DNA of 64,000 nucleotides from Campylobacteraceae bacterium (lineage in GTDB: Bacteria; Campylobacterota; Campylobacteria; Campylobacterales; BB28), in assembly GCA_016744535.1 (NCBI GenBank), contig JADGEE010000003.1, forward strand, positions 4,328 through 68,327, in the 5' to 3' direction. Positions within the stretch are counted from its first letter, which is position 1. The number at the start of each line of letters is the position of its first letter. The notes below the pieces were generated by a model. That model did not search any database and had not been told where the DNA came from. It saw only the letters and a list, made by a program, of their open reading frames with translations. This document shows positions 7,107 through 58,401 of this stretch, in pieces. The position numbers and the translations under genes are program-made.

Positions 7107-7109
7107 TCC

Positions 7110-30709: not shown

Positions 30710-30722
30710 CAAAGGATTTCAC

Positions 30723-32860: not shown

Positions 32861-34346
32861 ACTGAAGTAATTTTAATACATTTTGTTGAACTTGATTTGC
32901 TTGAGACATAGCATAACTTCCAGATTGAGCTAAAATATTATTCTTTTGGAAATTTGCAGATTCACTTGCAAAATCAACATCTCTAATATTAGATTCACTA
33001 GCTTTTACATTTACTTGTGTAACAGAAATATTATTAACGGTTACATTTAATTGGTTTTGAACAGAACCTAAATCACTTCTAAGACTATCTAATTGTTTAA
33101 TAGCAGCATCAGCAATACTCATAACACTCATAGCACCCGCCATAGTAGTAACACCTGCACCAAGTGTACCAATATTAGAAGCATTTGTATTTTCAAAAGC
33201 ACCCATTGCGTCAGCTGTAGCACTATCAATTGTACCTTTTACAGAACCTAAATTTAAAATAGTTTCATTAACACCATTAGCAGTATCAAATCCACCTAAT
33301 GCAGTATCAGATGTTACAGCAATATCTTTACCTCCAGATTTTGTTAAAGTAAGTCTTCCATAACTCTCTTCAGTAGATGTAGCAAATCCAGCTACTGTAT
33401 CAATACCAGTACCACTAATAGTTATACCTCTACCATCTGTACTTCTTAAATTTAAGTTTCCTCTCTCATCAGTATAAGCTTCAACTCCTGTTAAATCTTT
33501 TACACTATTAATAGCATTTACTAATTTTCCATCAGAATCATTTGCTGCAACACCAGAGATTGACCCTACATCAACTCCATTAATATTAATGCTTGTTAAA
33601 TCTCCTGCTACAACTGAAGAAACTGATGTATTTACATTTGTCCAAGAAGCTTTAACTCCACCTAATCTATCAGAGTTTTTATTAATGGTTTCAGCTAAAG
33701 TTCCAATACCTGTTCCGACACTTGTTGAAATTACAACACTTTCTAATGAAACATCATTTTGTCCATCAACTGCACTAAAAGTTAAAGTTGATGTAACCCC
33801 ACCTGAAATAACATCTGAAGTTTCAAATCTAACATCTCCAACTTTAGCTGAATGAGTTGAACCAATACTTGCCTTTATAGTCTCATTTGAATAAGCACCA
33901 ACTTGAAATTTTTTATTAGTAAAACTTCCAGATAGTAAACTTTGTCCATTAAAAGTTGTAGTATTTGAAATATTATCAAGCTGTTCTAAAAGTCTTGTAA
34001 TATCAGCTTGAAGTGCTTTTCTTGTATCAGTAGTTTGCCCATCTTGAGCAGATTGTGTAGCCTTAGTTTTGATAGTATCAAGAATTTTAACTTGCTCATC
34101 CATCGCTTTATCAGCAATTTGAATAATACCTATTCCATCATTAGCATTTTTAATTGCTTGTCCAAGGGAATTTGCTTGATTTCTCAAACTATCAGCAATT
34201 GCCATACCTGACGCATCATCAGCAGCTTTATTAATTCTAAGCCCACTACTTAACTTCTCTAAAGAACCCGAAAGTGACTTATTTGTCAAAAGACCTTGTG
34301 AATGTGCATTCATTGCCGCAATATTTGTATTAACTCTAAAACTCAT
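32859..34346 (-). CDS. flagellin (most divergent of three paralogues)
   Basis: 495 aa with a conserved N-terminus ([15 protein letters not shown]...[19 protein letters not shown]) and C-terminus (...[23 protein letters not shown]...VLKLLQ). Confidence 0.95.
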
Positions 34347-34402
34347 TTTTAACTCCTTACAAAATTTTTATGGTATCCATACCTTTTATAAAGAATAAAA
34401 AA

Positions 34403-34417
34403 GCAATAAGTGTTCCA
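34403..34417 (-). promoter_or_regulatory. sigma54 promoter of flagellin 32859..34346
   Basis: The minus strand reads tTGGAACacttaTTGCttt. It has exact GG-N10-GC spacing, about 57 nt upstream of the ATG. Confidence 0.7.
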
Positions 34418-34480
34418 AATATTATAGAAGTGGGGAGAAAAAAGTAAGAAAAGAAAAAAGAAAATATTTAAATTAATTAT

Positions 34481-35971: not shown

Positions 35972-35995
35972 AATTAAACCTCCATTTTTATTTTT

Positions 35996-36015
35996 ATGAA
36001 ACTTCCTTGTCTCAT
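35996..36015 (-). promoter_or_regulatory. 5'-UTR hairpin presenting AAGGAA (candidate CsrA site)
   Basis: The minus-strand RNA is AUGAGAC-AAGGAA-GUUUCAU, a 7-bp stem with one G-U pair. It lies upstream of the GGAGG Shine-Dalgarno sequence. Confidence 0.45.
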
Positions 36016-36101
36016 ACTTCTATTCTACAATAGAAAAACTTAAATAAATAATAATAAAAGATGAAATATTTAAAATTAATTTAATAAAATTGTTTAATAA
36101 A

Positions 36102-36130
36102 GCAAAAAAAGAAGAGAAAATACTCTTCTT
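36102..36130 (-). terminator. rho-independent terminator of flagellin 36145..37635
   Basis: On the minus strand it forms the hairpin aagaagag-tatttt-ctcttctt, followed by a T run. Confidence 0.65.
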
Positions 36131-36144
36131 TTATTTTGTAAATA

Positions 36145-37635
36145 TTATTGAAGTAATGATTGAACTTGTTGTTGTAATTGATTTGCTTGAGATAATGCAT
36201 AACTTCCTGCTTGAGATAAAATATTATTCTTCTGAAAATTAGCAGATTCACTTGCAAAATCAACATCTCTAATTTGAGATTCAGCTGCATTTACATTAAC
36301 TTGAGTAACTGAAATATTATTTACAGTTGTATTAAACTGGTTTTGAGTTGAACCTAAAGAACTTCTAATTTGGTCAAGTTGTTTAATAGCAGCATCTGCT
36401 ATATCCATCATTGCCATTGCACCACCCATAGTTGTAACTCCAGAACCAAGCGAACCAACATTTGCAACATTTGCGTTTTCAAAAGCACCCATTGCATCAG
36501 CTGTAGCACTTGCAATTGCACCTTTCATAGCACCTAAATTTACAATTTCTTCACTAGCTCCACCACCAGTAGCACTAAATCCACCTAAAACAGTATCAGC
36601 TGTTACAGTAATATCTTTACCACCAGATTTTGTTAAAGTTAATCTTCCATAACTCTCTTTAGAAGCTACATCAAATCCAGCTACTGTATTAACTCCTGTT
36701 CCACTAATACTTATACCTCTACCATCTAAACTTCTTAAGCTTAAATTACCTCTCTCATCAGTATAAGCTTCAACACCAGTTTGATCTTTTACTGCATTAA
36801 TAGCATTAACTAAAGTACCATCAGAATCATTTGCAGCAACACCGGAAATTGTCCCAACATTAATCCCATTAATAGAGACATCTGTAAGATCACCAGATGC
36901 AACTGAAGAGACTGATGTAGTTACATTTGTCCAAGAAGCTTTAACTCCACCTAATCTATCAGAGTTTTTATTAATTGTATCAGCTAATACGCCTAGCCCT
37001 GTTCCAACGCTAGTAGAAATTATAACACTCTCTAATGAAACATCATTTTGTCCATCAACTGCACTAAAAGTTAAAGTTGAATTAACAGCTGTTGAAATTA
37101 CAGTCGAAGTTTCAAATCTAACATCACCAACTTTAGATGAGTGAGTTGAATTAACACTCATAGCAATTGTTTGATTTGAATAAGCACCAACTTGAAACTG
37201 TTTATTAGTATAACTACCATTTAATAAGCTCTGTCCATTAAAACTAGTAGATGTAGCAATCCCATCAAGTGCACCTAATAATTTAGTAATATCAGCTTGA
37301 AGAGCTTTTCTTGTATCAGTAGTTTGTCCATCTTGAGCAGCTTGAGTAGCTTTAGTTTTAATAGTATCAAGAATTTTAACTTGTTCATCAATTGCTTTAT
37401 CAGCAATTTGAATAATCCCAATTCCATCATTAGCATTTTTAATAGCTTGACCTAATGAGTTTCCTTGATTTCTTAAACTATCAGCAATCGCCATTCCTGA
37501 AGCATCATCTGCTGCTTTATTAATTCTAAGACCACTACTTAATTTCTCAAGAGAAGCACCCAATGCTTTACTCGTATTATTACTTTGAACCTGTGCATTC
37601 AATGAATTCACATTTGTGTTTATTCTAAATCCCAT
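36145..37635 (-). CDS. flagellin
   Basis: 496 aa, [15 protein letters not shown]...QVQSLLQ, with GGAGG 7 nt upstream of the start. Confidence 0.95.
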
Positions 37636-40001: not shown

Positions 40002-41105
40002 ATGCAAGAGTTAAAATATAATTTAGAAGAGTTACAAAAAAAAGCTAAAGAGAGAACAGTTAAAACTCAAAATATTGAATATTCACCTGAAATGTTATTA
40101 AAAAGGGTAGATAATGGTGAAATAAAAATCAATCCTGAATATCAAAGAAGGCATAGATGGACTCCTGAAATATCATCTCGTTTAATAGAGAGTTTGATTT
40201 TAAATATTCCTATTCCTTTAATCTATTTGTCACAAGATATTGATATAGATGAAGAGACAAAAGAGGGAATAGCACGATATTCAATAATAGATGGACAACA
40301 AAGAGTTACAGCAATTATTAATTTTTTTAAAAATGAGTATCCCCTAACAAGTTTAGAGGTATTAAAAGAGTTAGAGGGAAATTATTTCAAAGATTTACCA
40401 CCATTTTTAGTAAGAAGATTAGAAGATAGGAGTATAAAATTTTTAAGAGTAGATTCAACTGCTGATTCCAAAGTTAAATATGATATTTTTGAGAGATTAA
40501 ACTCTGGTTCAGTTCACTTAGAACCACAAGAGTTAAGAAATTCTATATATAGAGGAAAATTTAATGATTTAATTAAAGAGTTATCAGTAGATGAAAATTT
40601 TAGAAAATTACTACAAATTGATTCAAATGAGCATAAAAAAGTAAAAAAGATGGAGGATGTAGAGTTAGTTTTAAGATTTTTTGCTTTAAGTAACAATGAT
40701 GGTTATAAAAATGTAAAGCAAGGAATTGTACATTTTTTATCTGAAGCTATGAAAAATTTTAATAAATTAAATAATGAAGAGTTAGAAGAGTTAAAAGATA
40801 AATTTAAAAAAGTAATGGAAGTTATACTTAAATTTTTTGATGACAAAGCATTTGCTAAATATAATGCAAGGAAAATAACACCTTTTAATACATCTGTTTA
40901 TGATGCACTTTCTATTGCTGTGGCAAAAGAAGTTGATTTAGATAATCCAAATATACCAAAAGAAAAAATAGAAAAGTTTAAAGACCTTTTTAAAAATGAT
41001 GAAGATAATAAATTTTTTATTTCTATAGATAATAATACTACTGATAGTCAAAAAATTATATATATAATAGATAGAGTGAGAAAGATATTATCAAATGGAA
41101 ACTAA
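40002..41105 (+). CDS. DUF262 (ParB/Srx-like) domain protein
   Basis: Motifs are PEYQRRHRW, IIDGQQRVTAI and FERLNSGSVHLEPQELRN. I see no DUF1524 His-Me nuclease half. Confidence 0.85.
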   Translation: MQELKYNLEELQKKAKERTVKTQNIEYSPEMLLKRVDNGEIKINPEYQRRHRWTPEISSRLIESLILNIPIPLIYLSQDIDIDEETKEGIARYSIIDGQQRVTAIINFFKNEYPLTSLEVLKELEGNYFKDLPPFLVRRLEDRSIKFLRVDSTADSKVKYDIFERLNSGSVHLEPQELRNSIYRGKFNDLIKELSVDENFRKLLQIDSNEHKKVKKMEDVELVLRFFALSNNDGYKNVKQGIVHFLSEAMKNFNKLNNEELEELKDKFKKVMEVILKFFDDKAFAKYNARKITPFNTSVYDALSIAVAKEVDLDNPNIPKEKIEKFKDLFKNDEDNKFFISIDNNTTDSQKIIYIIDRVRKILSNGN

Positions 41106-41895
41106 TTTATATGAATTAGTAAATACTTTAAATAATAGACAAAAAGAGATAGAAATATTAATTGAAGAGATTAAAATTCATCAAAATAATTTACAAAAAG
41201 AGGATTTATATAACTCTTTATGTAGAAGTACAACAATTTTAATTGTTTCTCATTTAGAGGGCTTTATGAAAGATTTGGCAAAAGCAATTATTGATGATAT
41301 AAATGAAAACTTAGACTTTCAAAATATAAATAACAATTTAAAAAAAGTTTTTTGTAAGAAGTTTTTAGGTGAGAAAAAACATGAAAGCGATAAAGAGTAT
41401 ATTGAACGCCAAAATGAGTTAATTAGTACTTTTAATAATTTAGATACAAAACTTACAAAAGAGCCTTTTTTATTTAAAGATAATAAAAATCCAAAATCTG
41501 ATGTTATTAATAAAATTTGTAATAATTTTGGAGTTAGAAATATATTTTCTCATTTAAAAAATTCTAAATTAGATATAGTTTTTGAAGATGATACACAAGA
41601 AATAAGTAATTTATTAGATGAATTATTAGAGTATATTTTAAATCAATTAAGAGTTTATCCTTTTAATTTGAATATTGAGATATTTGATTTGACTCAAAAA
41701 ACTATGCTAAAAGATGAAAAAACACCATTGGAAGAGTTTTTAGAAGAGTTATTAACTAAAAGACACAGTATTGTTCATGGTAATTCAATTAATAATGAAG
41801 AAATACCTGAAAGTTTAATTAGATACAAAAATAAATCATTAATATTACAATATGGAATTATAATAGTTATGATAAACAAGATTTTTACAAGGTAA
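41095..41895 (+). CDS. HEPN-like putative RNase (RiboL-PSP / MAE_28990-like)
   Basis: It has a C-terminal Rx4H motif (LLTKRHSIVHGNS) and an N-terminal SHLEGFMKDL helix. It overlaps the DUF262 gene by 11 nt. Confidence 0.65.
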   Translation: METNLYELVNTLNNRQKEIEILIEEIKIHQNNLQKEDLYNSLCRSTTILIVSHLEGFMKDLAKAIIDDINENLDFQNINNNLKKVFCKKFLGEKKHESDKEYIERQNELISTFNNLDTKLTKEPFLFKDNKNPKSDVINKICNNFGVRNIFSHLKNSKLDIVFEDDTQEISNLLDELLEYILNQLRVYPFNLNIEIFDLTQKTMLKDEKTPLEEFLEELLTKRHSIVHGNSINNEEIPESLIRYKNKSLILQYGIIIVMINKIFTR

Positions 41896-44293: not shown

Positions 44294-47200
44294 ATGGGAA
44301 ATATATTAAAAATAATTTTTAATTTTTGGATTTTAAATATTAGTTTACTCGGTGCCACCTATGAGATAGGAAGTGGTACATCTTATCAGGCTTCAGAAAC
44401 TCATCAGTTTTTACCTGGAACTTTTACAAACGCAAAAGTTCAAATTTTATTAACTGCTTCTGAATTATCAACAGCTGGTTTTTCAGGAGATATTAATGCT
44501 ATAGAGTGGTATGTTGAAACAGATAATACACCTACTGATGTTGTATATGATATATATATAGGACATATAATAAGTACAACTTTGCCAGATAATGCACTAT
44601 TTGATACAACATCGTTAAGTTTATTTGGAAATCAATTAGTTGATGTAGGAAGTTTCACAGGATGGCACGGCTCAAACTTAACTACTAATTTCACTTGGAA
44701 TGGAACAAGCAATATATTAATTCAAATTTGTAGAACAGGAAATTCAAATGGTGACAGTGATAATATAGCCTATTTTGCTGATGGTGGTATACAAATGATT
44801 ACAGGTTATTCTAACTCTTGTAGTGATACTACTGGAACTTATTCAAATACATTTAGACCTTTTTTAAGAATTTCTTCTACTCCACTAATTACAGACACAA
44901 CTCCTCCAACAGTAACAAGTATATTACCAAGTGGCTCACCAACTGCAAGTGACACAAGTGTAACTTTTACAGCTTCATTTAGTGAAGATGTAATAAATAT
45001 AGATACAAGTGATTTTGAATTAACAACAACAGGAACTGCAACTGGAAATATAGTTTCGACTTCAGTTTCTAGTGGAACTAGTGTTGATATTGTGGTTAAT
45101 ACTATTAGTGGAGTAGGCAATATTCGTTTAGATTTAGTAACAAGCCATAACTTAACTGATAGTGCTTCAAATGCTTTAAGTGGAGGATATAATAGTGGAA
45201 CTGTACATAGTGTAGATTTTAAACCAATATCCCCAAGCGATTTAGTAATAACGGCAATAAATGATACACAGATGAGTATAGATTGGGTTGATAATTCAAA
45301 TAATGAAGATAATTTTATACTATATAGCTCTACTAATGGGATTGATTATGAACTAAATGAAACTTTAGCCTCTGATACTATAACTAAATTAATGATGGAT
45401 TTAACTCCAAATACTATTTATTATTTTCAAATTGGTGCGATTAATAGTTATGGAGAAAATAATTCAAGCATTGAAAATAATTCAACATTTGCAACTCAAC
45501 CTATAGTACCAATCAATATTGGTGGCAATAGCAATTCAAATCAAATAGAATTAAATTGGAATGATAGTTCAACTATTGAAACAGGTTTTAAAATTTATAC
45601 CTCTACTGATGGAACTAATTATTCTTTAAATACAACAGTTGGTGCAAATACTACAAATGAAATAATAACAGGTTTGAGTGCAGATACAACATATTACTTT
45701 AAAATAAATTCATATATTCATATTAATTTACTTCTTACTAATTTTGATATAGTAATTAATACTCAAACAGTAACTATAAAAACAAATGACCCAGCTAATT
45801 TTACAGCATTTACAAATTTAAATAAAAATGAAGATTTTAGTGAATTTAATTTACGTATAATAGACTTAACAGACAATGACAGTGATAATTTAGTATTAAG
45901 CGTAGAAAACAATGATAGTTCACTTTTAAACATCACTAGAAGTTGGAATGCTAATTTAACATCAACAGAGTATAATTCTCAAGATTTTAATATCACTTTT
46001 ACATCAATAGCAAATACTTATGGAGTGGCAGAAATTAATGTAAGTAGTTATGACGGAAAAGATTATATAGATAATATATTTCAAATAGTTGTAAATGCCG
46101 TAAATGATATACCAATAATTACTTCAATTACAAACATATATAAAGATATAAATTTTAGTGAATTTAATATAAGTATAAATATTGATGATGTAGACACAAA
46201 TGAGTTAAATATAACAGTAGATGTAAACGATACAAGTTTAATTGATATGAATCAAACTTGGGATAATAATTTAAGTTATGAAGAATATCACTTACAAGAG
46301 TTAAATTTAACTGTAAAATCAAAATCAAATATAGAAGGAGTTGTAAGATTTACAATTTCAGCAGAAGATAATCAATTAAAACCAATTACAACATTTGATT
46401 TAAATATAAGTGCATATAATTATGCTTTAGAAGATTTAAATGCAATATCAATACCATTAACAACAATAGACAATATAGATTTATCTAGTATAGGAGCTAT
46501 AAATTCAAGTAATATAAGTTGGATTTCTAATAATACTGAAGTGCTAAATAGTAGTGGAGTTGTAAACAGGCAAATTAATAATGATGTAATTATAACCCTT
46601 ACAGCAACTTTAAATTTAATTAATACAACACTTACAAAAAACTTTGATATAACGGTAATTAGAATACCATATACTCCACCTCCCTATGTAGAATCAGAGT
46701 CAGAATCAGTTGTTGAAGAAATAACAACTGATAGTTTTAGTGAAGATAGTGGAGTAACACTTGAAATTAGCGAAGATGGAAGTACAAATTTTAATGTAAC
46801 TAGCGTAAGTGAAAGTGGTGAAGTAGTTGAAACACAAACAGAACTTCCATCAGGAACAGAAATTAGTATAAATGAAGCAGGAGAAATTGAGCAAAGTTTT
46901 GTAAGTGAAGATGGAACAGAAATAAAATTAACAACATCACAAACAGGAAAAGTAACACTAAAAGTAACAACAGCAAATGGAGAAGAGGTGAGCTTTGAAG
47001 CCCCAGCTGGGACGAAACTAAAAATAGCGGAAGATGGAAGTTCAAAACAAGATTACTCCACAAAAGATTCAAAAACAGAATTAAAAATAAGTGCAACTGG
47101 AGAGAGTGAATTAAATTTAAAATCAGAAGATGGAAACAAAGTAGAGTTAAAAAGCGAATTAGCTGGAAAAACGGAGTTAAAAGAGAGTGGAGGCTTTAAA

Positions 47201-49153
47201 CAGAGTTTTGAAACTGGAGATAATAAAATATCAATTGAGGGTTCTAAACAAGCAAACTCACAAGCGGTTATAGAGTTACCAAATTTAAAATTAACACTAA
47301 CACCTCCTAAAAATGGAAAAGTATCCGTTAAAAAAGATGGAAGTGTATCAATAGCAAATGACACAATAACTTCAATTGGAACAGTGAAAAGTGAAATGAG
47401 GGTAAATCCAGATACAGGAGATGCTTCAGTAGAGGTTAATATTCAAAGTAATCAAAGAGGAGTAGTCCCTAAAAAAATATTTTATTCAACTAGAAAAGAT
47501 ATATCAAATATAAAATTAGAAGTGATTTTAGATGAGCGAAAAGCTAAATCAAGAGCATTTAATAGCTCAAAAAGTAAAACAGGAAAAATAAAAGCAGTTT
47601 TTTCAACAAGAAAAAGCTTTAATTTTAAGGAAAATATATCAAGGGAAGTTAGTAATAGCTCATTAGGAGTTACACCTTTGAGTGATGCAGAGTTTGAAGA
47701 AAATTTATATTTTGATAATTCACAAGAGTTGAAATTGAAATCAGGAAGTGCAAATATAAAAGGATTTTTTAGCACTAGAGGAAGTTTTTCAAATAAGAGA
47801 AAAACCACAAATACGGATTTGATTAATAATAGAGATTTTAGTATGAAATCAAATAGTGCTATTATGAGTGAAAATAATATTATAGCAACTCTAAATGAGG
47901 GTAATTTAAAAACTGATTTACAAGCAAATTCAAATGGTGATTTAAACATTAATATCACTAATTTTACAAATACAAAAAGAGGTTTAAAAACAACAGCGAA
48001 AAAACTATTTTATTCAGTTAGAAAAGATTTTTCAAATGTGAAAGTAGAAATTATAGAAAATTCAAATCAAAGAGGATTTAAATCACCTAAAATTAAAACA
48101 CTTTTTTCAACAAGAGAAAGCTTTAATTTTAAATCCTCAAATTTAAGAACAGTAGATGAAATAGAGATAATTCCAGTAGATGAAAACACAACATTTACTG
48201 AAAATATATTAGAAGATGGAAGTAGATATATAGAGTTAATTTCAGGTACAGCTAGTATTAATAGTGAAACTATGATTTTAAATAAAAGTTATGAACTTCC
48301 TGCACTAGAATTAATTGAAGTGGTAGAAGATTTAATTATAAATCAAGAGGTAAAATTAGAGTTACAAAAAGAGTGGAATTTAATTTCAACTCCAATATCA
48401 GAAGATATTAGTGATAAATTTATATTTCAAGATTATGATTTAATTTGGAATTTTAAAGATAATAATTGGGTTAAGAATCCAAGCATTTTATATTATGAAG
48501 ATGGATATTGGATAAAAACAGATAGCGAAAATAATATAACTTTTAAAGGTAGTAGTTATACTCCTAACTTAAAAAGAGTTGTTTCAACTTGGGCATTAGT
48601 TGGAACTGGAACAGAAATTAATGATATAAATAATTTAATAAGTGAAGAAAAAATTAAAGAAATTTATCAATTTAAAGATAATAAATGGTTAAAGTCAAAT
48701 GATATTAATTCACTAAATATTGGTGATGGTTTTTGGATAAAAAAGATACCAGCAGATTTTATATTTAATATCAAAGAGGGTTGGAATTTACTATCACTTC
48801 CAACAAAAGAGATAATTTCAAATATGTCTATTTTTGGTGACTATGAAGAGATATTAATTTATGATAATAAAGAGTGGATTAAAAATCCAAACCAAATAAA
48901 GCCAATGCAGGGGTTTTGGATAAACTCTAATGAAAACATATCACTTGCTTTTTACGGAGAGGGATATAATATTGATATCAACTCTTTAAGTATTGGTTGG
49001 TCGCTTGTGGGCGGAAATATTAATTTTGAAAATTTAAAATTTTCTGAAATTAAATCAATATTACTATTTAAAAATGATAAATGGACTACGGTTGATTCTT
49101 TTAAAAATATTGATTTAATTAAAAAAGCTGATGGTTTTTGGATTTTAAAATAA
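44294..49153 (+). CDS. giant surface protein (Ig-like, 2x FN3, NDxP cadherin/tandem-95-like repeats, shared tail)
   Basis: 1619 aa with an N-terminal hydrophobic leader. It has an Ig-like segment (TDTTPPTVTSILP...) and two FN3 units (...TIYYFQIGAINSYG; ...TTYYFKINSY). It also has VNAVNDIPIITSI repeats and a bacterial Ig unit (ISWISNNTEVLNSSGVV...LTATL). From YVESESES onward it matches the tail of the next ORF. Confidence 0.85.
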   Translation: MGNILKIIFNFWILNISLLGATYEIGSGTSYQASETHQFLPGTFTNAKVQILLTASELSTAGFSGDINAIEWYVETDNTPTDVVYDIYIGHIISTTLPDNALFDTTSLSLFGNQLVDVGSFTGWHGSNLTTNFTWNGTSNILIQICRTGNSNGDSDNIAYFADGGIQMITGYSNSCSDTTGTYSNTFRPFLRISSTPLITDTTPPTVTSILPSGSPTASDTSVTFTASFSEDVINIDTSDFELTTTGTATGNIVSTSVSSGTSVDIVVNTISGVGNIRLDLVTSHNLTDSASNALSGGYNSGTVHSVDFKPISPSDLVITAINDTQMSIDWVDNSNNEDNFILYSSTNGIDYELNETLASDTITKLMMDLTPNTIYYFQIGAINSYGENNSSIENNSTFATQPIVPINIGGNSNSNQIELNWNDSSTIETGFKIYTSTDGTNYSLNTTVGANTTNEIITGLSADTTYYFKINSYIHINLLLTNFDIVINTQTVTIKTNDPANFTAFTNLNKNEDFSEFNLRIIDLTDNDSDNLVLSVENNDSSLLNITRSWNANLTSTEYNSQDFNITFTSIANTYGVAEINVSSYDGKDYIDNIFQIVVNAVNDIPIITSITNIYKDINFSEFNISINIDDVDTNELNITVDVNDTSLIDMNQTWDNNLSYEEYHLQELNLTVKSKSNIEGVVRFTISAEDNQLKPITTFDLNISAYNYALEDLNAISIPLTTIDNIDLSSIGAINSSNISWISNNTEVLNSSGVVNRQINNDVIITLTATLNLINTTLTKNFDITVIRIPYTPPPYVESESESVVEEITTDSFSEDSGVTLEISEDGSTNFNVTSVSESGEVVETQTELPSGTEISINEAGEIEQSFVSEDGTEIKLTTSQTGKVTLKVTTANGEEVSFEAPAGTKLKIAEDGSSKQDYSTKDSKTELKISATGESELNLKSEDGNKVELKSELAGKTELKESGGFKQSFETGDNKISIEGSKQANSQAVIELPNLKLTLTPPKNGKVSVKKDGSVSIANDTITSIGTVKSEMRVNPDTGDASVEVNIQSNQRGVVPKKIFYSTRKDISNIKLEVILDERKAKSRAFNSSKSKTGKIKAVFSTRKSFNFKENISREVSNSSLGVTPLSDAEFEENLYFDNSQELKLKSGSANIKGFFSTRGSFSNKRKTTNTDLINNRDFSMKSNSAIMSENNIIATLNEGNLKTDLQANSNGDLNINITNFTNTKRGLKTTAKKLFYSVRKDFSNVKVEIIENSNQRGFKSPKIKTLFSTRESFNFKSSNLRTVDEIEIIPVDENTTFTENILEDGSRYIELISGTASINSETMILNKSYELPALELIEVVEDLIINQEVKLELQKEWNLISTPISEDISDKFIFQDYDLIWNFKDNNWVKNPSILYYEDGYWIKTDSENNITFKGSSYTPNLKRVVSTWALVGTGTEINDINNLISEEKIKEIYQFKDNKWLKSNDINSLNIGDGFWIKKIPADFIFNIKEGWNLLSLPTKEIISNMSIFGDYEEILIYDNKEWIKNPNQIKPMQGFWINSNENISLAFYGEGYNIDINSLSIGWSLVGGNINFENLKFSEIKSILLFKNDKWTTVDSFKNIDLIKKADGFWILK

Positions 49154-49185: not shown

Positions 49186-52100
49186 ATGAAAAATATATTT
49201 TTAAAAATTATAGTATTAATTCTATTTTTTTTAGTAACTTTTGTAAATGCAGATATAAATATATCTCAAAAAGCCCACGCTGGAGTAATGCAATTTAATG
49301 GAACAAGTTATATTATAGCTTCAGAACCAAATTTAACAACATATAATACATTTACTTCTGAAGCTTGGTTTCAACCAAGTTATATGTTAGATGGAACTAA
49401 TTATGATTTAGTTAGAGTAGATGATCAATTAATTAGAATTTCTTATTCTGGAGGATCATATTATTTACTTGTTGGTATCGGCTCTGGTTTAGGATATGAA
49501 GAGTTTACTACAGATATTTCATCAATTTTTGAAATAAATAATTGGAATCATGTAACTATGACTTATGATGGTGATTTTATTAGAGGATATATAAACGGTG
49601 AAGAAGTTATAAATTCTAATAAAACTAATGATGGAAACTTAATAAATGGAGATAATGATAATAACTTAACCATAGGAATCTCTACAACCACAACATATGG
49701 ATATGTAAATCTGTTTAAAGGTTTAATGGATGAAGTTAGAGTTTGGAATATAGCTAGAAGCTCAACAGAAATTAATTCAACAATGAATAAACAATTAGAT
49801 GGAAATGAGAGTGGATTAGTAGCATATTATAATTTTGATGAAGTTGTTGGAAATATTGTAATAGATATTGCTAATAGTGATTATAATGGAACAATTGAAG
49901 GAAATGGCACAAGACTTAATTTTTTAGGAGATGGTCTTAATTTTGATGGAGATGATGATTATGTAAATATTAATGATGATAATTCTACAAATACTCATTT
50001 ATATGCTTTAGATGGAAATATTACACTTAGTAGTTGGATTAAAATAGATGGACTTCATAGTACAACTTATTCAGAAGTTATAAGTAGATATGGAACTAGC
50101 AATGGATATATTTTAAGAGTAAAGAATAGTAGTGGTATTATCCAAATGGTAAATAAAAATGCAGATACAGAACATAATATATCTAGTACAAAAGCTATTA
50201 CCGATAATCTATGGCACTATATAGTAGCCACTTATGATGGGAGTTACCAAAGATTATACATTGATGGGATTGAAAATAATTCTACTTATGTTGGTGCTAA
50301 CGCCATTGGTGCTTCTGCTGGTACATTAACTTTTGGTGCTACAAGCACATTAGTTAGTGAATTAAAAGGAAATATAGCAGAAACTTCAATTTGGAATAGA
50401 GCTTTAAGTGAGAGAGAAATTAATAAGTATATGTATATTTCATTAGATGGAAATGAGAGTGGATTATTAGGTTACTGGTCACTAAATGAAGGCGATGGTA
50501 ATATAACTTATGATAGAAGTTCTTATGCTAATGAAGGAAATATAAGTGGTGCAGAGTGGAACACCACAGCCCCAATAATTTATGGAAATAATTTATATAC
50601 GCAAGGATTATCTACTAAAATAGTTAAATTAAATGTAGAAAATAATATAACAGAAGCAATACTAGCTGACCCTTTAACTCCTGCAAATGGAAGTGTAGAT
50701 TTTAACTCTTCATTTGCTACATATAGTTATATTCCAACTGATTATATAGATGATACTTTTATAATTAATGCAAATGATACTTCAACAGAAGCAAATTTAA
50801 CCATTAATATTAAAAAAAGAAATATGTATGGTCTAATAGATACAAATGAATCAGTAAATTTTGGATTAACTGATGTAGCTGTTACAAAAACTTTGACTAT
50901 TAATAATTTAAATTTAGGTGATTTAATAATAGATAATGTCTATCTTACAAATAGTTTTAATTCAACTTTTGAAATAGTTAATAATTGTAGCACTGCTTTA
51001 TCAGCAAATACAAGTTGTGATATTAATATAACTTACACTCCTCAAATAAATGATTTTAGAGCAACTACATTACAAATAGAATCAAATGATGCTTTTGATT
51101 CTAATAAAAATATTATGATTTATGGTTATGGACAGGGTTTTGGAGAGATAAAAGGAAATGCTAACCACTCCTTAGCAGTTAAAAGAGACAATACTCTTTG
51201 GGCTTGGGGAAATAATTTAGAAGGACAACTTGGAGATGGAACTAATACAGATAGCAATACACCTATTCAAATATTAACAGATGTAATATCAGTAGATGGA
51301 TATGACCATACTCTAGCACTTAAAAAAGATGGAACTCTTTGGGCTTGGGGAAATAACACTTACGGACAACTTGGAGATGAAAATGATACAAATTTAAATA
51401 CACCAACTCAAATATCATTAAATAATATAGTAAAATTGGAAACTGGTGGTAATCACAGTATGGTATTAGATAGTAATGGAAAAGTTTGGAGTTGGGGATA
51501 TAATGCAAATGGAGAACTTGGAGATGGAAATAATACAGATTTAAATATACCAACTAAAATATCTTCATTAACAGATATAGTTTCAATTTCAGCAGGTGGC
51601 AATCATAATTTAGCCCTAAAAAATGATGGTAGTGTATGGAGTTGGGGAAAAAATCATAAGGGGCAATTAGGAGATAATTCAATTGTAAATAATTCTACAC
51701 CAACTAAAATATCCTCACTAAGTAATATAATTTATATATCTGCTGGAAATGCTCATAATTTTGCAATAAAAAATGATGGAACGATTTGGGGATGGGGATA
51801 TAATGGAGTTGGAGCATTAGGTGACGGAACTAATACAGATAGATATGCACCAACTCAAATCACTTCATTAACTGATATCTTATTCATTGAGAGTGGAGGT
51901 GACCATACTTTAGCGTTAGATAGTAATAACATTCTTTGGAGTTCAGGATATAATGTATCAGGGCAACTTGGTGACGGAAATAATACAGATAAAAATACCT
52001 TTACTCAAATATCTTCACTAAGTGATATAAAGATAGTAATTGGAGGAGATAAAGATACTTTAGCAGTAGATAATAATGGAAGTGTCTGGAGTTTTGGGGA

Positions 52101-55100
52101 TAACACTTATGGACAATTAGGAGATGAAACTATTATAAATAAAAATACTCCAACTGATATAAATTTTAATTTATATACAACGAATATACAATTTAATTTA
52201 ACAAATATAAATTTAAGTGAACATAATATTACTTCTATTAAAATTTATGGAGTTGATGATAATAGTGAAGAGTTTAATTTAACAAACTTAATAGATGGTG
52301 ATAATAATTTTACGACTTTAATTTATAATTTTGATAATAATTACTCAATTGAATTAAATGTTAGTGTTAATACAATTGAGACTAATTGGTATTATAATTT
52401 TAATGACGGACTATTATATCCTGATAATAATTTAAGTGATGAGTTTAAAAATCAGTTAAATATTACAAATAATCTGTTTTTAATTGATACTAATTCAATA
52501 AATTGGAATATTCCAAATATAATATATACTGGAGAAGAGTATACATTAACAAAAGATATTATTCATAATAATAATTTAACAATTGAAGCAAATGCTACAC
52601 TTTATACAGATGATTATAATTTAACGATAGATGGTGATTTAATTTTATATGGAAGCATAATTAGTAGTTCTAATATTACAGTAAAAGGAGATACCTATAT
52701 ATGGTTAGGAGAATCTGCTAACTCATCAATTAATGATGAATTAATACTAAATGGAGATTTAACTTTTTCATCAGTAACTGGAGATAGTAGATTTTATCAA
52801 CCTTTTATTAATAAACTTAGTTTAAATAGTAGTAGTTCTCAAAATATTTATATGGATAGTATTTCTTGGCAATATTATTTTAACTCAATAGAGTTAAATA
52901 ATACTAATGAAGTAAATTTTTATCTTAATAATTATAATGGAATAGATGTAAGTGGAAGTTTTACACAAAATTCAACTCCAATAAATATTTATAGCAATGG
53001 AACTTTAATATCTACAACTCCTAGTTTTGAATATTTTTATTTTTATGATACCGAAAATTATCAATTTAATACAGTCCCTTATATCGAAACATTATTTATT
53101 GATAATACGCAAATAATAGATTTTAATTTTACTGCAAATAATATTGTTATGTCTTATAATTATGATATAAATTCAACAGGAGAGATAAGTTCAACTCCGC
53201 CAGATATAACTAATTTAATAACAGCAGAATCCACTTATAATACTTTAAAATATTTTATTGATGTAACATCAGATAGTGGTTATGATTTAAATTTAATAAC
53301 TTTACCAAATTATAATATATATTATATAAGTTTTAATAATTTAAAAGGTGAAATAAAAAATTTAACATCAACACTAAGTGGTGTATCTTTTTATAATACA
53401 AATGAGATAAATATATCAAATTCAAATTTTACTTTGGAATATATGAATATTGATTCTTATTCAAAAATAAATTTAATTGATTCGGATATTAATATAAATA
53501 GTTCACTATATGTATATGATTCAAACATTAGTTTAACAAATTCTGATTTATTTACAAATTATCTGTCTATGAGTGGTGAATCAAATTATACAAAAGATAG
53601 TACAAGTTCATTTAGTTTTATAAATTCAGATACAAGTTTAATATCAGATATTATTGAAAGTTCACCAACACCTACACCTACAGCAACTTCAAGTGTAAAT
53701 GTAACCCCCTATGTAGAATCAGAGTCAGAATCAGTTGTTGAAGAAATAACAACTGATAGTTTTAGTGAAGATAGTGGAGTAACACTTGAAATTAGCGAAG
53801 ATGGAAGTACAAATTTTAATGTAACTAGCGTAAGTGAAAGTGGTGAAGTAGTTGAAACACAAACAGAACTTCCATCAGGAACAGAAATTAGTATAAATGA
53901 AGCAGGAGAAATTGAGCAAAGTTTTGTAAGTGAAGATGGAACAGAAATAAAATTAACAACATCACAAACAGGAAAAGTAACACTAAAAGTAACAACAGCA
54001 AATGGAGAAGAGGTGAGCTTTGAAGCCCCAGCTGGGACGAAACTAAAAATAGCGGAAGATGGAAGTTCAAAACAAGATTACTCCACAAAAGATTCAAAAA
54101 CAGAATTAAAAATAAGTGCAACTGGAGAGAGTGAATTAAATTTAAAATCAGAAGATGGAAACAAAGTAGAGTTAAAAAGCGAATTAGCTGGAAAAACGGA
54201 GTTAAAAGAGAGTGGAGGCTTTAAACAGAGTTTTGAAACTGGAGATAATAAAATATCAATTGAGGGTTCTAAACAAGCAAACTCACAAGCGGTTATAGAG
54301 TTACCAAATTTAAAATTAACACTAACACCTCCTAAAAATGGAAAAGTATCCGTTAAAAAAGATGGAAGTGTATCAATAGCAAATGACACAATAACTTCAA
54401 TTGGAACAGTGAAAAGTGAAATGAGGGTAAATCCAGATACAGGAGATGCTTCAGTAGAGGTTAATATTCAAAGTAATCAAAGAGGAGTAGTCCCTAAAAA
54501 AATATTTTATTCAACTAGAAAAGATATATCAAATATAAAATTAGAAGTGATTTTAGATGAGCGAAAAGCTAAATCAAGAGCATTTAATAGCTCAAAAAGT
54601 AAAACAGGAAAAATAAAAGCAGTTTTTTCAACAAGAAAAAGCTTTAATTTTAAGGAAAATATATCAAGGGAAGTTAGTAATAGCTCATTAGGAGTTACAC
54701 CTTTGAGTGATGCAGAGTTTGAAGAAAATTTATATTTTGATAATTCACAAGAGTTGAAATTGAAATCAGGAAGTGCAAATATAAAAGGATTTTTTAGCAC
54801 TAGAGGAAGTTTTTCAAATAAGAGAAAAACCACAAATACGGATTTGATTAATAATAGAGATTTTAGTATGAAATCAAATAGTGCTATTATGAGTGAAAAT
54901 AATATTATAGCAACTCTAAATGAGGGTAATTTAAAAACTGATTTACAAGCAAATTCAAATGGTGATTTAAACATTAATATCACTAATTTTACAAATACAA
55001 AAAGAGGTTTAAAAACAACAGCGAAAAAACTATTTTATTCAGTTAGAAAAGATTTTTCAAATGTGAAAGTAGAAATTATAGAAAATTCAAATCAAAGAGG

Positions 55101-56178
55101 ATTTAAATCACCTAAAATTAAAACACTTTTTTCAACAAGAGAAAGCTTTAATTTTAAATCCTCAAATTTAAGAACAGTAGATGAAATAGAGATAATTCCA
55201 GTAGATGAAAACACAACATTTACTGAAAATATATTAGAAGATGGAAGTAGATATATAGAGTTAATTTCAGGTACAGCTAGTATTAATAGTGAAACTATGA
55301 TTTTAAATAAAAGTTATGAACTTCCTGCACTAGAATTAATTGAAGTGGTAGAAGATTTAATTATAAATCAAGAGGTAAAATTAGAGTTACAAAAAGAGTG
55401 GAATTTAATTTCAACTCCAATATCAGAAGATATTAGTGATAAATTTATATTTCAAGATTATGATTTAATTTGGAATTTTAAAGATAATAATTGGGTTAAG
55501 AATCCAAGCATTTTATATTATGAAGATGGATATTGGATAAAAACAGATAGCGAAAATAATATAACTTTTAAAGGTAGTAGTTATACTCCTAACTTAAAAA
55601 GAGTTGTTTCAACTTGGGCATTAGTTGGAACTGGAACAGAAATTAATGATATAAATAATTTAATAAGTGAAGAAAAAATTAAAGAAATTTATCAATTTAA
55701 AGATAATAAATGGTTAAAGTCAAATGATATTAATTCACTAAATATTGGTGATGGTTTTTGGATAAAAAAGATACCAGCAGATTTTATATTTAATATCAAA
55801 GAGGGTTGGAATTTACTATCACTTCCAACAAAAGAGATAATTTCAAATATGTCTATTTTTGGTGACTATGAAGAGATATTAATTTATGATAATAAAGAGT
55901 GGATTAAAAATCCAAACCAAATAAAGCCAATGCAGGGGTTTTGGATAAACTCTAATGAAAACATATCACTTGCTTTTTACGGAGAGGGATATAATATTGA
56001 TATCAACTCTTTAAGTATTGGTTGGTCGCTTGTGGGCGGAAATATTAATTTTGAAAATTTAAAATTTTCTGAAATTAAATCAATATTACTATTTAAAAAT
56101 GATAAATGGACTACGGTTGATTCTTTTAAAAATATTGATTTAATTAAAAAATCTGATGGTTTTTGGATTTTAAAATAA
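49186..56178 (+). CDS. giant surface protein (2x LamG, 7-blade RCC1 propeller, Asn-rich region, shared tail)
   Basis: 2330 aa with a signal peptide. It has two LamG/ConA-like units (...GLMDEVRVWNIARS; ...GNIAETSIWNRALS) and seven RCC1 repeats ([WG]G.N..G[QEA]LGD). Its tail matches that of the preceding ORF. Confidence 0.85.
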   Translation: MKNIFLKIIVLILFFLVTFVNADINISQKAHAGVMQFNGTSYIIASEPNLTTYNTFTSEAWFQPSYMLDGTNYDLVRVDDQLIRISYSGGSYYLLVGIGSGLGYEEFTTDISSIFEINNWNHVTMTYDGDFIRGYINGEEVINSNKTNDGNLINGDNDNNLTIGISTTTTYGYVNLFKGLMDEVRVWNIARSSTEINSTMNKQLDGNESGLVAYYNFDEVVGNIVIDIANSDYNGTIEGNGTRLNFLGDGLNFDGDDDYVNINDDNSTNTHLYALDGNITLSSWIKIDGLHSTTYSEVISRYGTSNGYILRVKNSSGIIQMVNKNADTEHNISSTKAITDNLWHYIVATYDGSYQRLYIDGIENNSTYVGANAIGASAGTLTFGATSTLVSELKGNIAETSIWNRALSEREINKYMYISLDGNESGLLGYWSLNEGDGNITYDRSSYANEGNISGAEWNTTAPIIYGNNLYTQGLSTKIVKLNVENNITEAILADPLTPANGSVDFNSSFATYSYIPTDYIDDTFIINANDTSTEANLTINIKKRNMYGLIDTNESVNFGLTDVAVTKTLTINNLNLGDLIIDNVYLTNSFNSTFEIVNNCSTALSANTSCDINITYTPQINDFRATTLQIESNDAFDSNKNIMIYGYGQGFGEIKGNANHSLAVKRDNTLWAWGNNLEGQLGDGTNTDSNTPIQILTDVISVDGYDHTLALKKDGTLWAWGNNTYGQLGDENDTNLNTPTQISLNNIVKLETGGNHSMVLDSNGKVWSWGYNANGELGDGNNTDLNIPTKISSLTDIVSISAGGNHNLALKNDGSVWSWGKNHKGQLGDNSIVNNSTPTKISSLSNIIYISAGNAHNFAIKNDGTIWGWGYNGVGALGDGTNTDRYAPTQITSLTDILFIESGGDHTLALDSNNILWSSGYNVSGQLGDGNNTDKNTFTQISSLSDIKIVIGGDKDTLAVDNNGSVWSFGDNTYGQLGDETIINKNTPTDINFNLYTTNIQFNLTNINLSEHNITSIKIYGVDDNSEEFNLTNLIDGDNNFTTLIYNFDNNYSIELNVSVNTIETNWYYNFNDGLLYPDNNLSDEFKNQLNITNNLFLIDTNSINWNIPNIIYTGEEYTLTKDIIHNNNLTIEANATLYTDDYNLTIDGDLILYGSIISSSNITVKGDTYIWLGESANSSINDELILNGDLTFSSVTGDSRFYQPFINKLSLNSSSSQNIYMDSISWQYYFNSIELNNTNEVNFYLNNYNGIDVSGSFTQNSTPINIYSNGTLISTTPSFEYFYFYDTENYQFNTVPYIETLFIDNTQIIDFNFTANNIVMSYNYDINSTGEISSTPPDITNLITAESTYNTLKYFIDVTSDSGYDLNLITLPNYNIYYISFNNLKGEIKNLTSTLSGVSFYNTNEINISNSNFTLEYMNIDSYSKINLIDSDININSSLYVYDSNISLTNSDLFTNYLSMSGESNYTKDSTSSFSFINSDTSLISDIIESSPTPTPTATSSVNVTPYVESESESVVEEITTDSFSEDSGVTLEISEDGSTNFNVTSVSESGEVVETQTELPSGTEISINEAGEIEQSFVSEDGTEIKLTTSQTGKVTLKVTTANGEEVSFEAPAGTKLKIAEDGSSKQDYSTKDSKTELKISATGESELNLKSEDGNKVELKSELAGKTELKESGGFKQSFETGDNKISIEGSKQANSQAVIELPNLKLTLTPPKNGKVSVKKDGSVSIANDTITSIGTVKSEMRVNPDTGDASVEVNIQSNQRGVVPKKIFYSTRKDISNIKLEVILDERKAKSRAFNSSKSKTGKIKAVFSTRKSFNFKENISREVSNSSLGVTPLSDAEFEENLYFDNSQELKLKSGSANIKGFFSTRGSFSNKRKTTNTDLINNRDFSMKSNSAIMSENNIIATLNEGNLKTDLQANSNGDLNINITNFTNTKRGLKTTAKKLFYSVRKDFSNVKVEIIENSNQRGFKSPKIKTLFSTRESFNFKSSNLRTVDEIEIIPVDENTTFTENILEDGSRYIELISGTASINSETMILNKSYELPALELIEVVEDLIINQEVKLELQKEWNLISTPISEDISDKFIFQDYDLIWNFKDNNWVKNPSILYYEDGYWIKTDSENNITFKGSSYTPNLKRVVSTWALVGTGTEINDINNLISEEKIKEIYQFKDNKWLKSNDINSLNIGDGFWIKKIPADFIFNIKEGWNLLSLPTKEIISNMSIFGDYEEILIYDNKEWIKNPNQIKPMQGFWINSNENISLAFYGEGYNIDINSLSIGWSLVGGNINFENLKFSEIKSILLFKNDKWTTVDSFKNIDLIKKSDGFWILK
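51140..52160 (+). other. seven RCC1-like beta-propeller blades inside the 2330-aa ORF
   Basis: The motifs EGQLGDG, YGQLGDE, NGELGDG, KGQLGDN, VGALGDG, SGQLGDG and YGQLGDE recur at ~50-aa spacing. Each is preceded by a [LV]W[AS]WG-like motif. Confidence 0.8.
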
Positions 56179-56211: not shown

Positions 56212-58401
56212 ATGAAAAGATTTTTTGTTACTTTATTTAGTTCTATTATGATAGTAATGCTGATGCTTGGTGCGTACATATATCTACCTTTATATTTTGA
56301 AACTTTTGATAATAAGATAAGAGATACATATTTTGTAGTTAGAGGTGAGAGACCTACAAGTGAAGATATTATAATAGTTGATATTGATGAGAAAAGTTTA
56401 GCTGAATTAGGACAATGGCCTTGGGAGAGAGTTAAAGTTGCACAAGTAATAGAAAATTTAACTGAAGCTGGAGTTGGAATCATTGGATTTGATATTGTTT
56501 TTGCTGAAGCTGATAATAGTTCTCCTAAAAAAGTGGCTGATTTTATTGGTCTTGATTTAGAACAAGTGCCTGAGATGAACATTGATTATGATGAAATTTT
56601 AGCTGAAAGTGTTGCTAATACTCCAACAATTTTAGGTTATATTTTTGATATAGCTCAAAATAATACTAAAAATGAAGATATATTTATAAATCTTCCTGCA
56701 ATTTATATTGAAAAAAACTTAATGAGTGACACTATGATTAATCCAACTCGAGCAATTTTAAATGTAGATGTACTTCAAGATGCAAGTTACTCAACTGGTT
56801 ATTTTAATGCTCAACCTGACGGAGATGGTGTTGTTAGAAGTGTTCCTCTACTTATGAAATTTAATGATGATATCTATCCTGCATTATCATTTGAAATGGT
56901 TAGAATTTTATTAGATGAATCTAAAGTTATTATTAATCATAATGAAATTGGAGTTGAGAGTATAGAGATGGGTGAAAAAATTATTCCAGTTGATAGATAC
57001 TCAAGACTTTTAATTAATTATAAAGGACCTGGAAAAAGTTATAAATATCTATCTATGAGTGATATTTATAATAAAAATTTTGAGCCTAAAGATGTTGAGG
57101 GGAAATTCGTATTAATTGGAACATCAGCACAAGGTCTTTTGGATTTAAGAACTACTCCATTTGATAGTGTTTATCCAGGTGTTGAAGTTCACGCAACTGC
57201 AATTGATAATATATTAAATGGAGATTTTATATCACGACCTAATTGGGCAGAAGAGGTAGATATGTTCTCTATTATAGGAATTGGTATAATTCTTGCAATT
57301 CTACTTTCAATTGCTTCACCTGTTTGGATGTTTATTATAGCTTCAATTTCCGTTATAGGAATTGTAGGGGCTAACTACTATCTATTTGTAGAAGAGGGTT
57401 ATATTATAAATATTATTTTTCCTATTTTAACAGCAATATCTGTAATTTTTATATCTAATATTATTAGTTACTTTTTAGAATCAAAACAGAAAGAGATGAT
57501 TAAAGGTAAATTTGCATCTAAAGTCTCACCTGCTGTTATGGAAGACTTAATTAAACAAGGTAATACAGATGTATTTGAAGGCAATGAACGAGATGTTACA
57601 GTCTTTTTCTCTGATGTTAGAGGATTTACAAATATCTCTGAAGCTATGAAAGAAGGAGCTAAAACACCAGGTGAGGGAGCTAAGAATTTAATTAATTTTT
57701 TAAATGAATATATGGATCCTATGACAGAAATTATTATAGATGAAGAGGGAACTATTGATAAATTTATAGGTGATGCTATTATGGCTTATTGGAATGCTCC
57801 AAATGATGTTAAAAATCATCCAGATAAAGCCCTATCAGCTGCTATTAGACAAATTGAAGGATTAATACCTTTAAATAAAAGCTTAAGTGCTAAAAATAAA
57901 CCATTTATTGATATTGGAATTGGTCTCAATACTGGTCCAGTTGTTGTTGGAGAGATGGGTTCAAAAGGGCGTTCTGATTATACAGTTATTGGAGATGCTA
58001 TTAATTTAGGAGCTAGGCTTGAATCTCTTTGTAAAGGTTATGGAGCTAGGATAATAATTTCAGAATATATGAAAGTTCTACTTAAAAAAGAGTATATTAT
58101 TAGAGATTTAGATTTAGTTAAAGTAAAAGGTAAATCTGAACCTGTTGAAATTTTTGAAGTTTATGGATTTGGATATGCGGAGGGAAGACTTAAAGAAGAG
58201 TTAGATAAATTCAATAAAGCAGTTCACTTATATAGAAATTCAAACTTTAAAGAAGCTTTAGAGATTTTTAGTAATATTAATACTTGGGAAGATAAAGCTA
58301 ATAAGAAAATTTATGATACTTATATCTTTAGATGTGAGCATTATATAAGTGAGCCTCCAACTGATTTTGATGGTGTTTGGACTCATACTACTAAGGGATA
58401 A
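56212..58401 (+). CDS. CHASE2-sensor class III adenylate/guanylate cyclase
   Basis: It has an N-terminal TM helix plus a CHASE2 domain (IIIVDIDEKSLAELGQWPWER) and three or four TM helices. Cyclase motifs are VTVFFSDVRGFTNISE, FIGDAIMAYWNAP and GDAINLGARLESL. It ends in a TPR-like tail. Confidence 0.85.
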   Translation: MKRFFVTLFSSIMIVMLMLGAYIYLPLYFETFDNKIRDTYFVVRGERPTSEDIIIVDIDEKSLAELGQWPWERVKVAQVIENLTEAGVGIIGFDIVFAEADNSSPKKVADFIGLDLEQVPEMNIDYDEILAESVANTPTILGYIFDIAQNNTKNEDIFINLPAIYIEKNLMSDTMINPTRAILNVDVLQDASYSTGYFNAQPDGDGVVRSVPLLMKFNDDIYPALSFEMVRILLDESKVIINHNEIGVESIEMGEKIIPVDRYSRLLINYKGPGKSYKYLSMSDIYNKNFEPKDVEGKFVLIGTSAQGLLDLRTTPFDSVYPGVEVHATAIDNILNGDFISRPNWAEEVDMFSIIGIGIILAILLSIASPVWMFIIASISVIGIVGANYYLFVEEGYIINIIFPILTAISVIFISNIISYFLESKQKEMIKGKFASKVSPAVMEDLIKQGNTDVFEGNERDVTVFFSDVRGFTNISEAMKEGAKTPGEGAKNLINFLNEYMDPMTEIIIDEEGTIDKFIGDAIMAYWNAPNDVKNHPDKALSAAIRQIEGLIPLNKSLSAKNKPFIDIGIGLNTGPVVVGEMGSKGRSDYTVIGDAINLGARLESLCKGYGARIIISEYMKVLLKKEYIIRDLDLVKVKGKSEPVEIFEVYGFGYAEGRLKEELDKFNKAVHLYRNSNFKEALEIFSNINTWEDKANKKIYDTYIFRCEHYISEPPTDFDGVWTHTTKG

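Follow-up and report, generated by a model that had tools for sequence, protein, structure and literature searches.

Carbohydrate-binding modules (CBMs) and small repeat lectins, for example the two-repeat tryptophan (Trp)-rich lectin RSL, are families with which Trp-rich repeats can be compared; in both groups, Trp enrichment has been linked to stacking on sugars. The PPC domain (PF04151) is a small β domain at the C-terminus of secreted bacterial and archaeal proteins, where it occurs in one or two copies, often on peptidases, and is thought to be removed after secretion. The WxL domain (PF13731) of Firmicutes surface proteins has been described as a peptidoglycan-attachment domain (PMC9772566, PMC10599100), and large WxL proteins have two WxL motifs ~68 residues apart (PMC9772566). 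More than 91% of WxL proteins are in Firmicutes, almost confined to Bacilli, and they lie in gene clusters with a small WxL protein and DUF916 (PMC9772566). Here, we analysed a 64,000-nucleotide (nt) stretch of a Campylobacteraceae bacterium (assembly GCA_016744535.1, contig JADGEE010000003.1, positions 4,328 to 68,327, forward strand), the whole of which we call the window, in which four open reading frames (ORFs A, B, C and D) end in Trp-rich repeats. We found that these repeats pair into a module that is, by profile comparison and predicted structure, an autonomous ~130-residue domain of two homologous Trp-rich β units of ~60 residues each.

The Trp-rich repeats reported by a first-pass annotation, made from the sequence letters and a list of ORFs, were borne out by translation of ORFs A, B, C and D, where each repeat spans ~55–70 amino acids (aa) at the C-terminus. 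The first motif, [GKTE]W[NSAH][LMF][IV][SG], had 10 matches in the six-frame ORFs of the window, 10 of 10 within A–D, relative to 0.06 expected from residue shuffles, and the composite repeat pattern had zero occurrences over 200 shuffles. Trp content in ORF A was 4.9% in the last 265 aa and 0.66% in the remainder (~7-fold). With a profile of the copies run against every reading frame, we found no further copy of the module elsewhere in the window. Twelve repeat copies had been counted, and all are present, but only eight are independent, because the last 2,472 nt of A and B are one mismatch apart and their eight copies count as four. Two repeat types alternate, type a reading 'GWNLIS.P ... 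IW.Y ... W.KNP ... G.GFWI' followed by a ~20-residue 'F.G..Y' linker and type b reading 'GW.LVGTG ... W..NP ... GDGFWIKK'. An a–b pair makes a unit of ~130 aa, of which A and B have two each and C and D one each.

Structure prediction had been suggested in the first-pass annotation as a way to tell a β-sandwich from a barrel. AlphaFold2, run on the first module of ORF A with a 45-sequence module alignment, gave a very confident model (predicted local distance difference test, pLDDT, 96.4; predicted template modelling score, pTM, 0.89), with pLDDT above 95 in all five models; five sequences alone gave a moderate model (pLDDT 76). The predicted fold is all-β and compact (138 aa), and each half has the same order of a strand, a short helix and three strands. 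Since the strands are 4–8 residues long, the model is that of a compact soluble domain and not of a membrane barrel. When the same alignment was split in two, the halves matched each other as profiles (hhalign probability 99.2%, E 1e-19). Hence, the domain arose by internal duplication. Across the module, six Trp positions are invariant or nearly invariant.

The module is unannotated in every library searched, and its confidently predicted fold is without a solved analogue. No Pfam-A or NCBIfam model covers it in ~130 members scanned, that is, the four window proteins, 68 full-length homologues, 45 isolated modules (E<=10) and 9–10 members of normal G+C content, from other phyla. A profile search of PDB sequences with the module found no match, and neither did Foldseek against the PDB with the confident model (best E 0.11, TM 0.23); the five-sequence model likewise gave nothing significant. 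In this respect, the first-pass proposal of a novel domain is supported. Searches of the literature by motif strings and topic gave nothing relevant on the module, and archaeal relatives, where databases name them, are nearly all called 'hypothetical protein' or after their passengers, with precomputed Pfam matches on the passengers only.

Among the candidates tried and dropped, DUF1737 matched 7 of 45 modules (best E 0.016, far below threshold, ~13–30 residues covered) and was treated as motif noise. A propeller-blade or RSL-like lectin fold was also set aside, as Kelch matches were single and insignificant and Foldseek found no propeller. In BFVD, a set of predicted viral structures, Foldseek had a single borderline hit (E 3.8e-3, TMq 0.57); the protein, from an uncultured marine phage and labelled 'hemin binding', may itself carry the module.

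Profile searching of other genomes, which had been suggested as a check, found thousands of widespread homologues. In an exhaustive search of 1.84 billion cluster representatives, 3,332 proteins matched at E<=1e-3, of which 287 reached E<=1e-10 and 18 reached E<=1e-30, so homologues outside this genome, such as protein P0001, back the module independently. A word-indexed protein search was insensitive to this low-complexity, AT-rich family. Scanning one genome per species, seeded by two exact motifs, confirmed 109 loci, whose taxon list is a biased sample. The carriers found include Sulfurovum, Sulfurospirillum and Thiovulum in the Campylobacterota; Ignavibacteria, Chlorobiaceae, Bacteroidota, Zixibacteria and Latescibacterota in the Fibrobacterota–Chlorobiota–Bacteroidota (FCB) group; Desulfobacteraceae, Syntrophales, Lentisphaerae/Victivallales and Planctomycetota (the latter two of the PVC group) and one Saccharibacteria bin among other bacteria; and Methanomethylicota and Methanosarcinales among the archaea. 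The closest relatives of the window's module proteins are in Campylobacterota genome bins. Members of normal G+C content keep the motifs ('GWNLISLPV ... G.GYWVK'). Hence, the family is no composition artefact. All 80 of the genome loci listed (L005–L084) come from metagenome-assembled genomes (MAGs), with no cultured isolate among them, and we found no copy in cultured phages and plasmids by tblastn or in IMG/VR by a scan with the same motifs. Hence, carriage by uncultured organisms may explain why the family escaped curation.

The first-pass annotation had the module always at the extreme C-terminus, and this did not hold in other genomes. Among the best 150 representatives, the module lies within 15 residues of the C-terminus in 130 and is N-terminal or internal in 20; internal copies in other genomes, which that annotation had itself named as refuting its proposal, do occur. 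The C-terminal or near-C-terminal pattern is that of Campylobacterota, Desulfobacterota, Lentisphaerae, the Saccharibacteria bin and most archaeal cases, and the tails of 9–13 residues after near-terminal modules look like one further strand. In FCB-group proteins, 55–270 residues follow the module. We scanned six of these proteins (one each from a Zixibacteria, Chlorobiaceae, Ignavibacteria and Latescibacteria MAG and two from Bacteroidota MAGs) and found Por_Secre_tail, the sorting domain of the type IX secretion system (T9SS), at the very end of all six, with a weak score in two, and the module 55–185 aa upstream.

A second family that departs from the C-terminal pattern is found at ~30 Campylobacterales loci, where the module directly follows the signal peptide, has its repeats in b–a order and precedes a Beta_propel domain. 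Such varied placement is what would be expected of an accessory binding module like a CBM or the PPC domain, and not of a signal. Among the passengers are PKD, Lcl_C, CAP, peptidases (C13, S8, C10, M28 and trypsin), RCC1, LamG, β-propellers and β-helices, and each protein has one or two copies of the module. P0072 is a complete protein consisting of only a signal peptide and the module; P0109 is like it but cut at the C-terminal end, and most other short matches are gene fragments. By a crude test, 98 of 134 Met-initiated matches have a hydrophobic N-terminus.

Two side observations concern these families. The FCB loci (L022, L025, L023 at 7081-9105, L016, L044 and L058) have 55–185 Pfam-blank residues between the module and the T9SS domain, and the longer of these gaps may hold another unannotated domain. 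The Campylobacterales Beta_propel protein is conserved at ~820–950 aa, with Beta_propel (PF09826) confirmed by Pfam in L027 and L065; its loci are L014, L020, L026, L027, L029, L034-L037, L039, L042, L047, L052, L054-L056, L062, L065, L066, L068, L069, L071, L072, L074-L076, L078 and L079.

Pfam-A and NCBIfam scans agree with the first-pass annotation that the four window ORFs have no RTX, LPXTG, PEP-CTERM, T9SS C-terminal-domain or autotransporter signature. No autotransporter or outer-membrane barrel family matched A–D, and the C-termini of the window ORFs end ...GFWILK, ...GFWINY and ...LKHFCN, without the terminal aromatic residue of a barrel signature. RTX repeats had no match in A–D; Sec signal peptides are present on A, B and C and on the separate start of the D gene, and there is no pair of ABC transporter and membrane-fusion protein nearby, and the T9SS models PF18962 and TIGR04183 had none in A–D either. 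The translations contain no LPXTG, PEP-CTERM or sortase/exosortase tail (motif, hydrophobic helix, basic tail), and no NCBIfam sorting-signal model matched. Choline-binding, GW, SLH, LysM and SH3b domains were absent by Pfam from the window proteins and from 45 + 68 + 10 homologues.

Co-occurrence with a dedicated secretion or attachment gene, another check that had been suggested, was not seen. No such gene adjoins A/B or C/D in the window, and the neighbourhoods of 80 loci, taken to 6 kb, have no gene common to different phyla apart from antisense ORFs and lineage-specific synteny, which were the main returns of this search. Module genes with different passengers do stand in tandem, in twos or threes, as A–B and C–D in the window and at L023, L040, L048, L051, L053, L057 and L070.

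From the variable position, the varied passengers, the stand-alone form, the placement before T9SS domains and the Trp enrichment, we infer a non-catalytic binding or tethering module, probably for a glycan or matrix polymer; this is our tentative preference, at a probability of roughly 0.45. By this reading, the passenger protein would cross the inner membrane via Sec using its N-terminal signal peptide, and would cross the outer membrane, where needed, by a separate route, which in the FCB group would be T9SS acting through its own C-terminal sorting domain. Outside the cell, the module would hold its passenger (protease, β-helix, LamG, RCC1, PKD or others) on a ligand. This would most likely be a glycan or matrix polymer, belonging either to the surface or biofilm of the producer itself or to a substrate. 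The module usually closes the mature protein, as a single or a double copy, and would itself be no secretion or sorting signal. By analogy with sugar-binding proteins, the ~7-fold Trp enrichment and the six near-invariant Trp residues would suit stacking on sugars, and the module may have a non-covalent anchoring role.

Several observations weigh against such a binding module. Passengers such as proteases, β-helices and PKD fit general display or assembly modules better than they fit carbohydrate-active enzymes. Conservation is highest at WNL, NP and G-x-G-F-W, which have the look of core and turn positions, a conserved polar cluster is not evident in the module alignment, and the Trp residues may simply be buried. 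The median isoelectric point of the module is 5.2, so it lacks the basic character of many non-covalent wall anchors, and no phage receptor-binding protein with the module was found among cultured phages (tblastn) or in IMG/VR (motif scan). A charge-based anchor was dropped as a candidate for the same lack of basic character.

Conservation of mostly structural residues would also suit a co-evolving protein–protein interface, as in a dockerin-like assembly or oligomerisation module that binds itself or a scaffold protein and so gathers secreted proteins into one surface complex. Genomes with several module proteins of unrelated passengers, often in tandem, and the complete signal-peptide-plus-module protein P0072 are in keeping with this, and a protein–protein interaction would explain carriers with very different envelopes. 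However, the search within 6 kb gave no possible partner gene shared between phyla and no cohesin-like or other partner family was seen in the window, and we consider an assembly module doubtful. The same structural-looking residues would be expected of an extension that has no ligand, namely a C-terminal cap, spacer or intramolecular chaperone possibly cleaved after secretion, and both the terminal bias and the frequent peptidase passengers (S8, C13, C10, M28, trypsin) recall the PPC domain. Peptidases are a minority of the passengers, however; the module also stands at the mature N-terminus and, in P0072, by itself; and a cap would not readily account for the tandem pair of modules in A and in B. 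Hence, a purely structural role seems to us quite unlikely.

Taken in its strong form, the proposal of the first-pass annotation is that a dedicated machine recognises the module as a new C-terminal signal for sorting, translocation or covalent anchoring. Signal-peptide proteins do have the module at their extreme C-terminus, as in the window and among the 150 best representatives (130 of them), and the four window ORFs have no known sorting signal. However, the module occurs internally or N-terminally in other genomes, and in FCB proteins a genuine T9SS sorting domain lies downstream of it; a domain placed in these ways is no C-terminal signal for sorting or translocation. That archaea and the candidate phyla radiation (CPR), including the Saccharibacteria MAG, have it along with diderm bacteria speaks against reliance on any single envelope-specific machine. 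Moreover, a 130-aa soluble β domain with short strands has neither a transmembrane segment nor a terminal aromatic residue, and no dedicated machinery adjoins it. We therefore hold this strong form to be highly improbable, and it looks already refuted on the present evidence; what had been taken for an anchor or secretion signal at the extreme C-terminus is a mobile extracellular module, probably for binding.

The features of the window that carry the module are collected in Table 1. The N-termini of A, B and C, read from the translations, are typical Sec signal peptides, and ORF D is without one because its gene is broken. The four repeat copies of ORF A end the protein (aa 1355-1619, nt 48356-49150), and ORF B also has a choice-of-anchor-D-like stretch that scores below cutoff.

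Table 1. Features of the window related to the Trp-rich module (positions are those of the window).
Feature	Positions	Strand	Description
ORF A	44294-49153	+	1,619 aa; Sec-type signal peptide, fn3 and aBig_2, 560-aa region shared with B, two C-terminal modules
ORF A module 1	48356-48769	+	Repeat a 48356-48568, repeat b 48569-48769; the modelled sequence
ORF A module 2	48770-49150	+	Repeat a 48770-48985, repeat b 48986-49150; stop is the next codon
Direct repeat, first copy	46682-49153	+	2,472 nt; 3' end of ORF A
ORF B	49186-56178	+	2,330 aa; signal peptide, two LamG-like domains, RCC1 propeller, 823-aa tail shared with A, two modules
ORF B modules 1 and 2	55381-55794 and 55795-56175 (together 55381-56175)	+	Four repeats; copy of the ORF A modules with one amino-acid difference
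Direct repeat, second copy	53707-56178	+	2,472 nt, one mismatch relative to the first copy; 3' end of ORF B
ORF C	5496-7106	-	536 aa; signal peptide, region weakly resembling the pre-module part of A/B, one module
ORF C module	5499-5888	-	Repeats a and b
ORF D	7110-8522	-	470 aa; last piece of a disrupted β-helix (PMP-repeat-like) gene; without its own signal peptide
ORF D module	7113-7583	-	Repeats a and b; most divergent of the copies
Upstream pieces of the disrupted D gene	8544-9802	-	9464-9802, start and signal peptide; 8544-9266, β-helix-like segment

The β-helix gene D, which had been called a pseudogene, is indeed broken: it is split into three ORFs, its signal peptide lies in a separate 112-aa ORF, and the repeats of its middle piece resemble those of ORF D. 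We found a break at the junction upstream of ORF D (upstream gene, 21-nt gap, 470-aa ORF) in two other assemblies, one from ENA and one from Logan, of the same sample series. Hence, the break is more likely real than an assembly error. Two of the window's module proteins were also found in metagenome assembly ERZ28566751 and in run SRR11072026.

The claim that the passengers are unrelated stood in part. They are largely different, but A and B share 823 residues, and the pre-module regions of A/B (46694-48355) and C (5889-7103, minus strand) are weakly homologous (BLASTP E 6e-7). A 'FEEN.YFDG...L..GSAN' segment falls within this weak homology, and close Campylobacterota homologues also keep a conserved stretch just upstream of the module. 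Judging from these shared stretches in A, B, C and the close homologues, the unit conserved at the C-terminus may, in this lineage, extend beyond the module. Separately, the 2,472-nt repeat gives the neighbouring giant genes A and B the same 3' third but for one base, which points to a recent duplication or gene conversion; it is also a possible spot for mis-assembly in a metagenome assembly.

The window is AT-rich (~23–34% G+C), and its genes include flagellins, flagellar rod genes, subunits of pyruvate:ferredoxin oxidoreductase (POR), a TonB-dependent receptor and chemotaxis genes. Together with the closest relatives of its module proteins, this makes the window probably a piece of the chromosome of an uncultured member of the Campylobacterota. 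QueC and QueH lie upstream of ORF A, rod genes and a CHASE2-cyclase gene lie downstream of ORF B, and POR subunits adjoin ORF C. Beyond ORF D is an ABC protein (9829-11454) followed by a beta-lactamase-family gene, not a membrane-fusion protein. The CHASE2 sensor is fused to an adenylate/guanylate cyclase domain (56212-58401), directly downstream of B on the same strand. Three tandem flagellin paralogues of 495-496 aa and a separate 683-aa flagellin-like gene occupy 32859-37635 and 25726-27777 on the minus strand. The interval from topA to the queuosine genes contains, at 40002-41895, what looks like a small pair of defence genes, the first for a GmrSD-N-domain protein and the second for a RiboL-PSP/MAE_28990-type HEPN protein. 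MoxR (AAA_3) and DUF58 genes are at 29765-31556, and in another Campylobacterota bin the module protein P0001 adjoins an NfeD/S49 gene, two VWA-domain genes and a BatD gene (locus L001, 10986-16989); this parallel is probably a coincidence.

New domains of unassigned function are not rare. If the binding or tethering reading is true, thousands of 'hypothetical' secreted proteins of uncultured sediment, cave and groundwater microbes would share one unannotated handle that fixes their extracellular destination. Defining the family would make the domain boundary, the extracellular location and the passenger-plus-module architecture readable in annotation, and identifying the ligand would tell how carriers attach enzymes and adhesins to a surface or matrix, including Campylobacterota that have no recognised anchoring signal there. 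A confident model without a solved analogue makes the module a reasonable target for structure determination, and it could serve as a small display tag. A bolder idea, which we think unlikely, is that the module is the common handle of an undescribed surface-display or assembly system of diderms, CPR and archaea that tethers dozens of different secreted proteins per genome to the same conserved partner, which would be a scaffold protein or else some ubiquitous polymer of the surface or matrix; such a system would be a cross-domain analogue of dockerin–cohesin or WxL display.

Set against the described systems, the module resembles CBMs and lectins in being an autonomous Trp-rich β module that occurs on varied secreted proteins, at either end and in variable copy number, and, in Bacteroidota-type proteins, just before the T9SS sorting domain; its internal repeats could also give more than one binding site. 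It differs in having no sequence or fold match to a solved CBM or lectin and in having passengers that are mostly not carbohydrate-active enzymes. With the PPC domain it shares a small C-terminal β architecture in one or two copies and frequent peptidase passengers, whereas the module is internally duplicated, Trp-rich, also N-terminal and in at least one case a stand-alone protein, and the PF04151 profile had no match in window proteins, homologues, 45 modules or normal-G+C members. The T9SS sorting domain (Por_Secre_tail, PF18962/TIGR04183) is likewise a C-terminal β domain common to unrelated secreted passengers; however, the two domains coexist in FCB proteins, where the T9SS domain comes last. 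The module also occurs in lineages that are not known to have a T9SS, including archaea.

Resemblance to the WxL domain is at the level of motifs only: the module has W7-N-L9 and W79-x-L81, 72 residues apart. Both kinds of motif lie on β strands of mostly antiparallel β domains, which are C-terminal on large multi-domain surface proteins and also occur as small domain-only proteins. In contrast, the WxL flanks (Asp at W1-8, Arg at W1-6, GTxAG) are absent from the module, whose consensus before the first motif is 'xxxLxLxxGWNL', and PF13731 matched none of the window proteins (E<=1), the 45 modules (E<=10) or 10 normal-G+C members (E<=5). Furthermore, the module is an internal duplication, which the WxL domain is not described to be, and it is found in diderm bacteria, CPR and archaea, with no DUF916 or similar gene in the window and no conserved neighbour. 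Hence, the module is not a member of the WxL family; the WxL domain is nonetheless its nearest analogue, and by that analogy the module may work as the WxL domain does.

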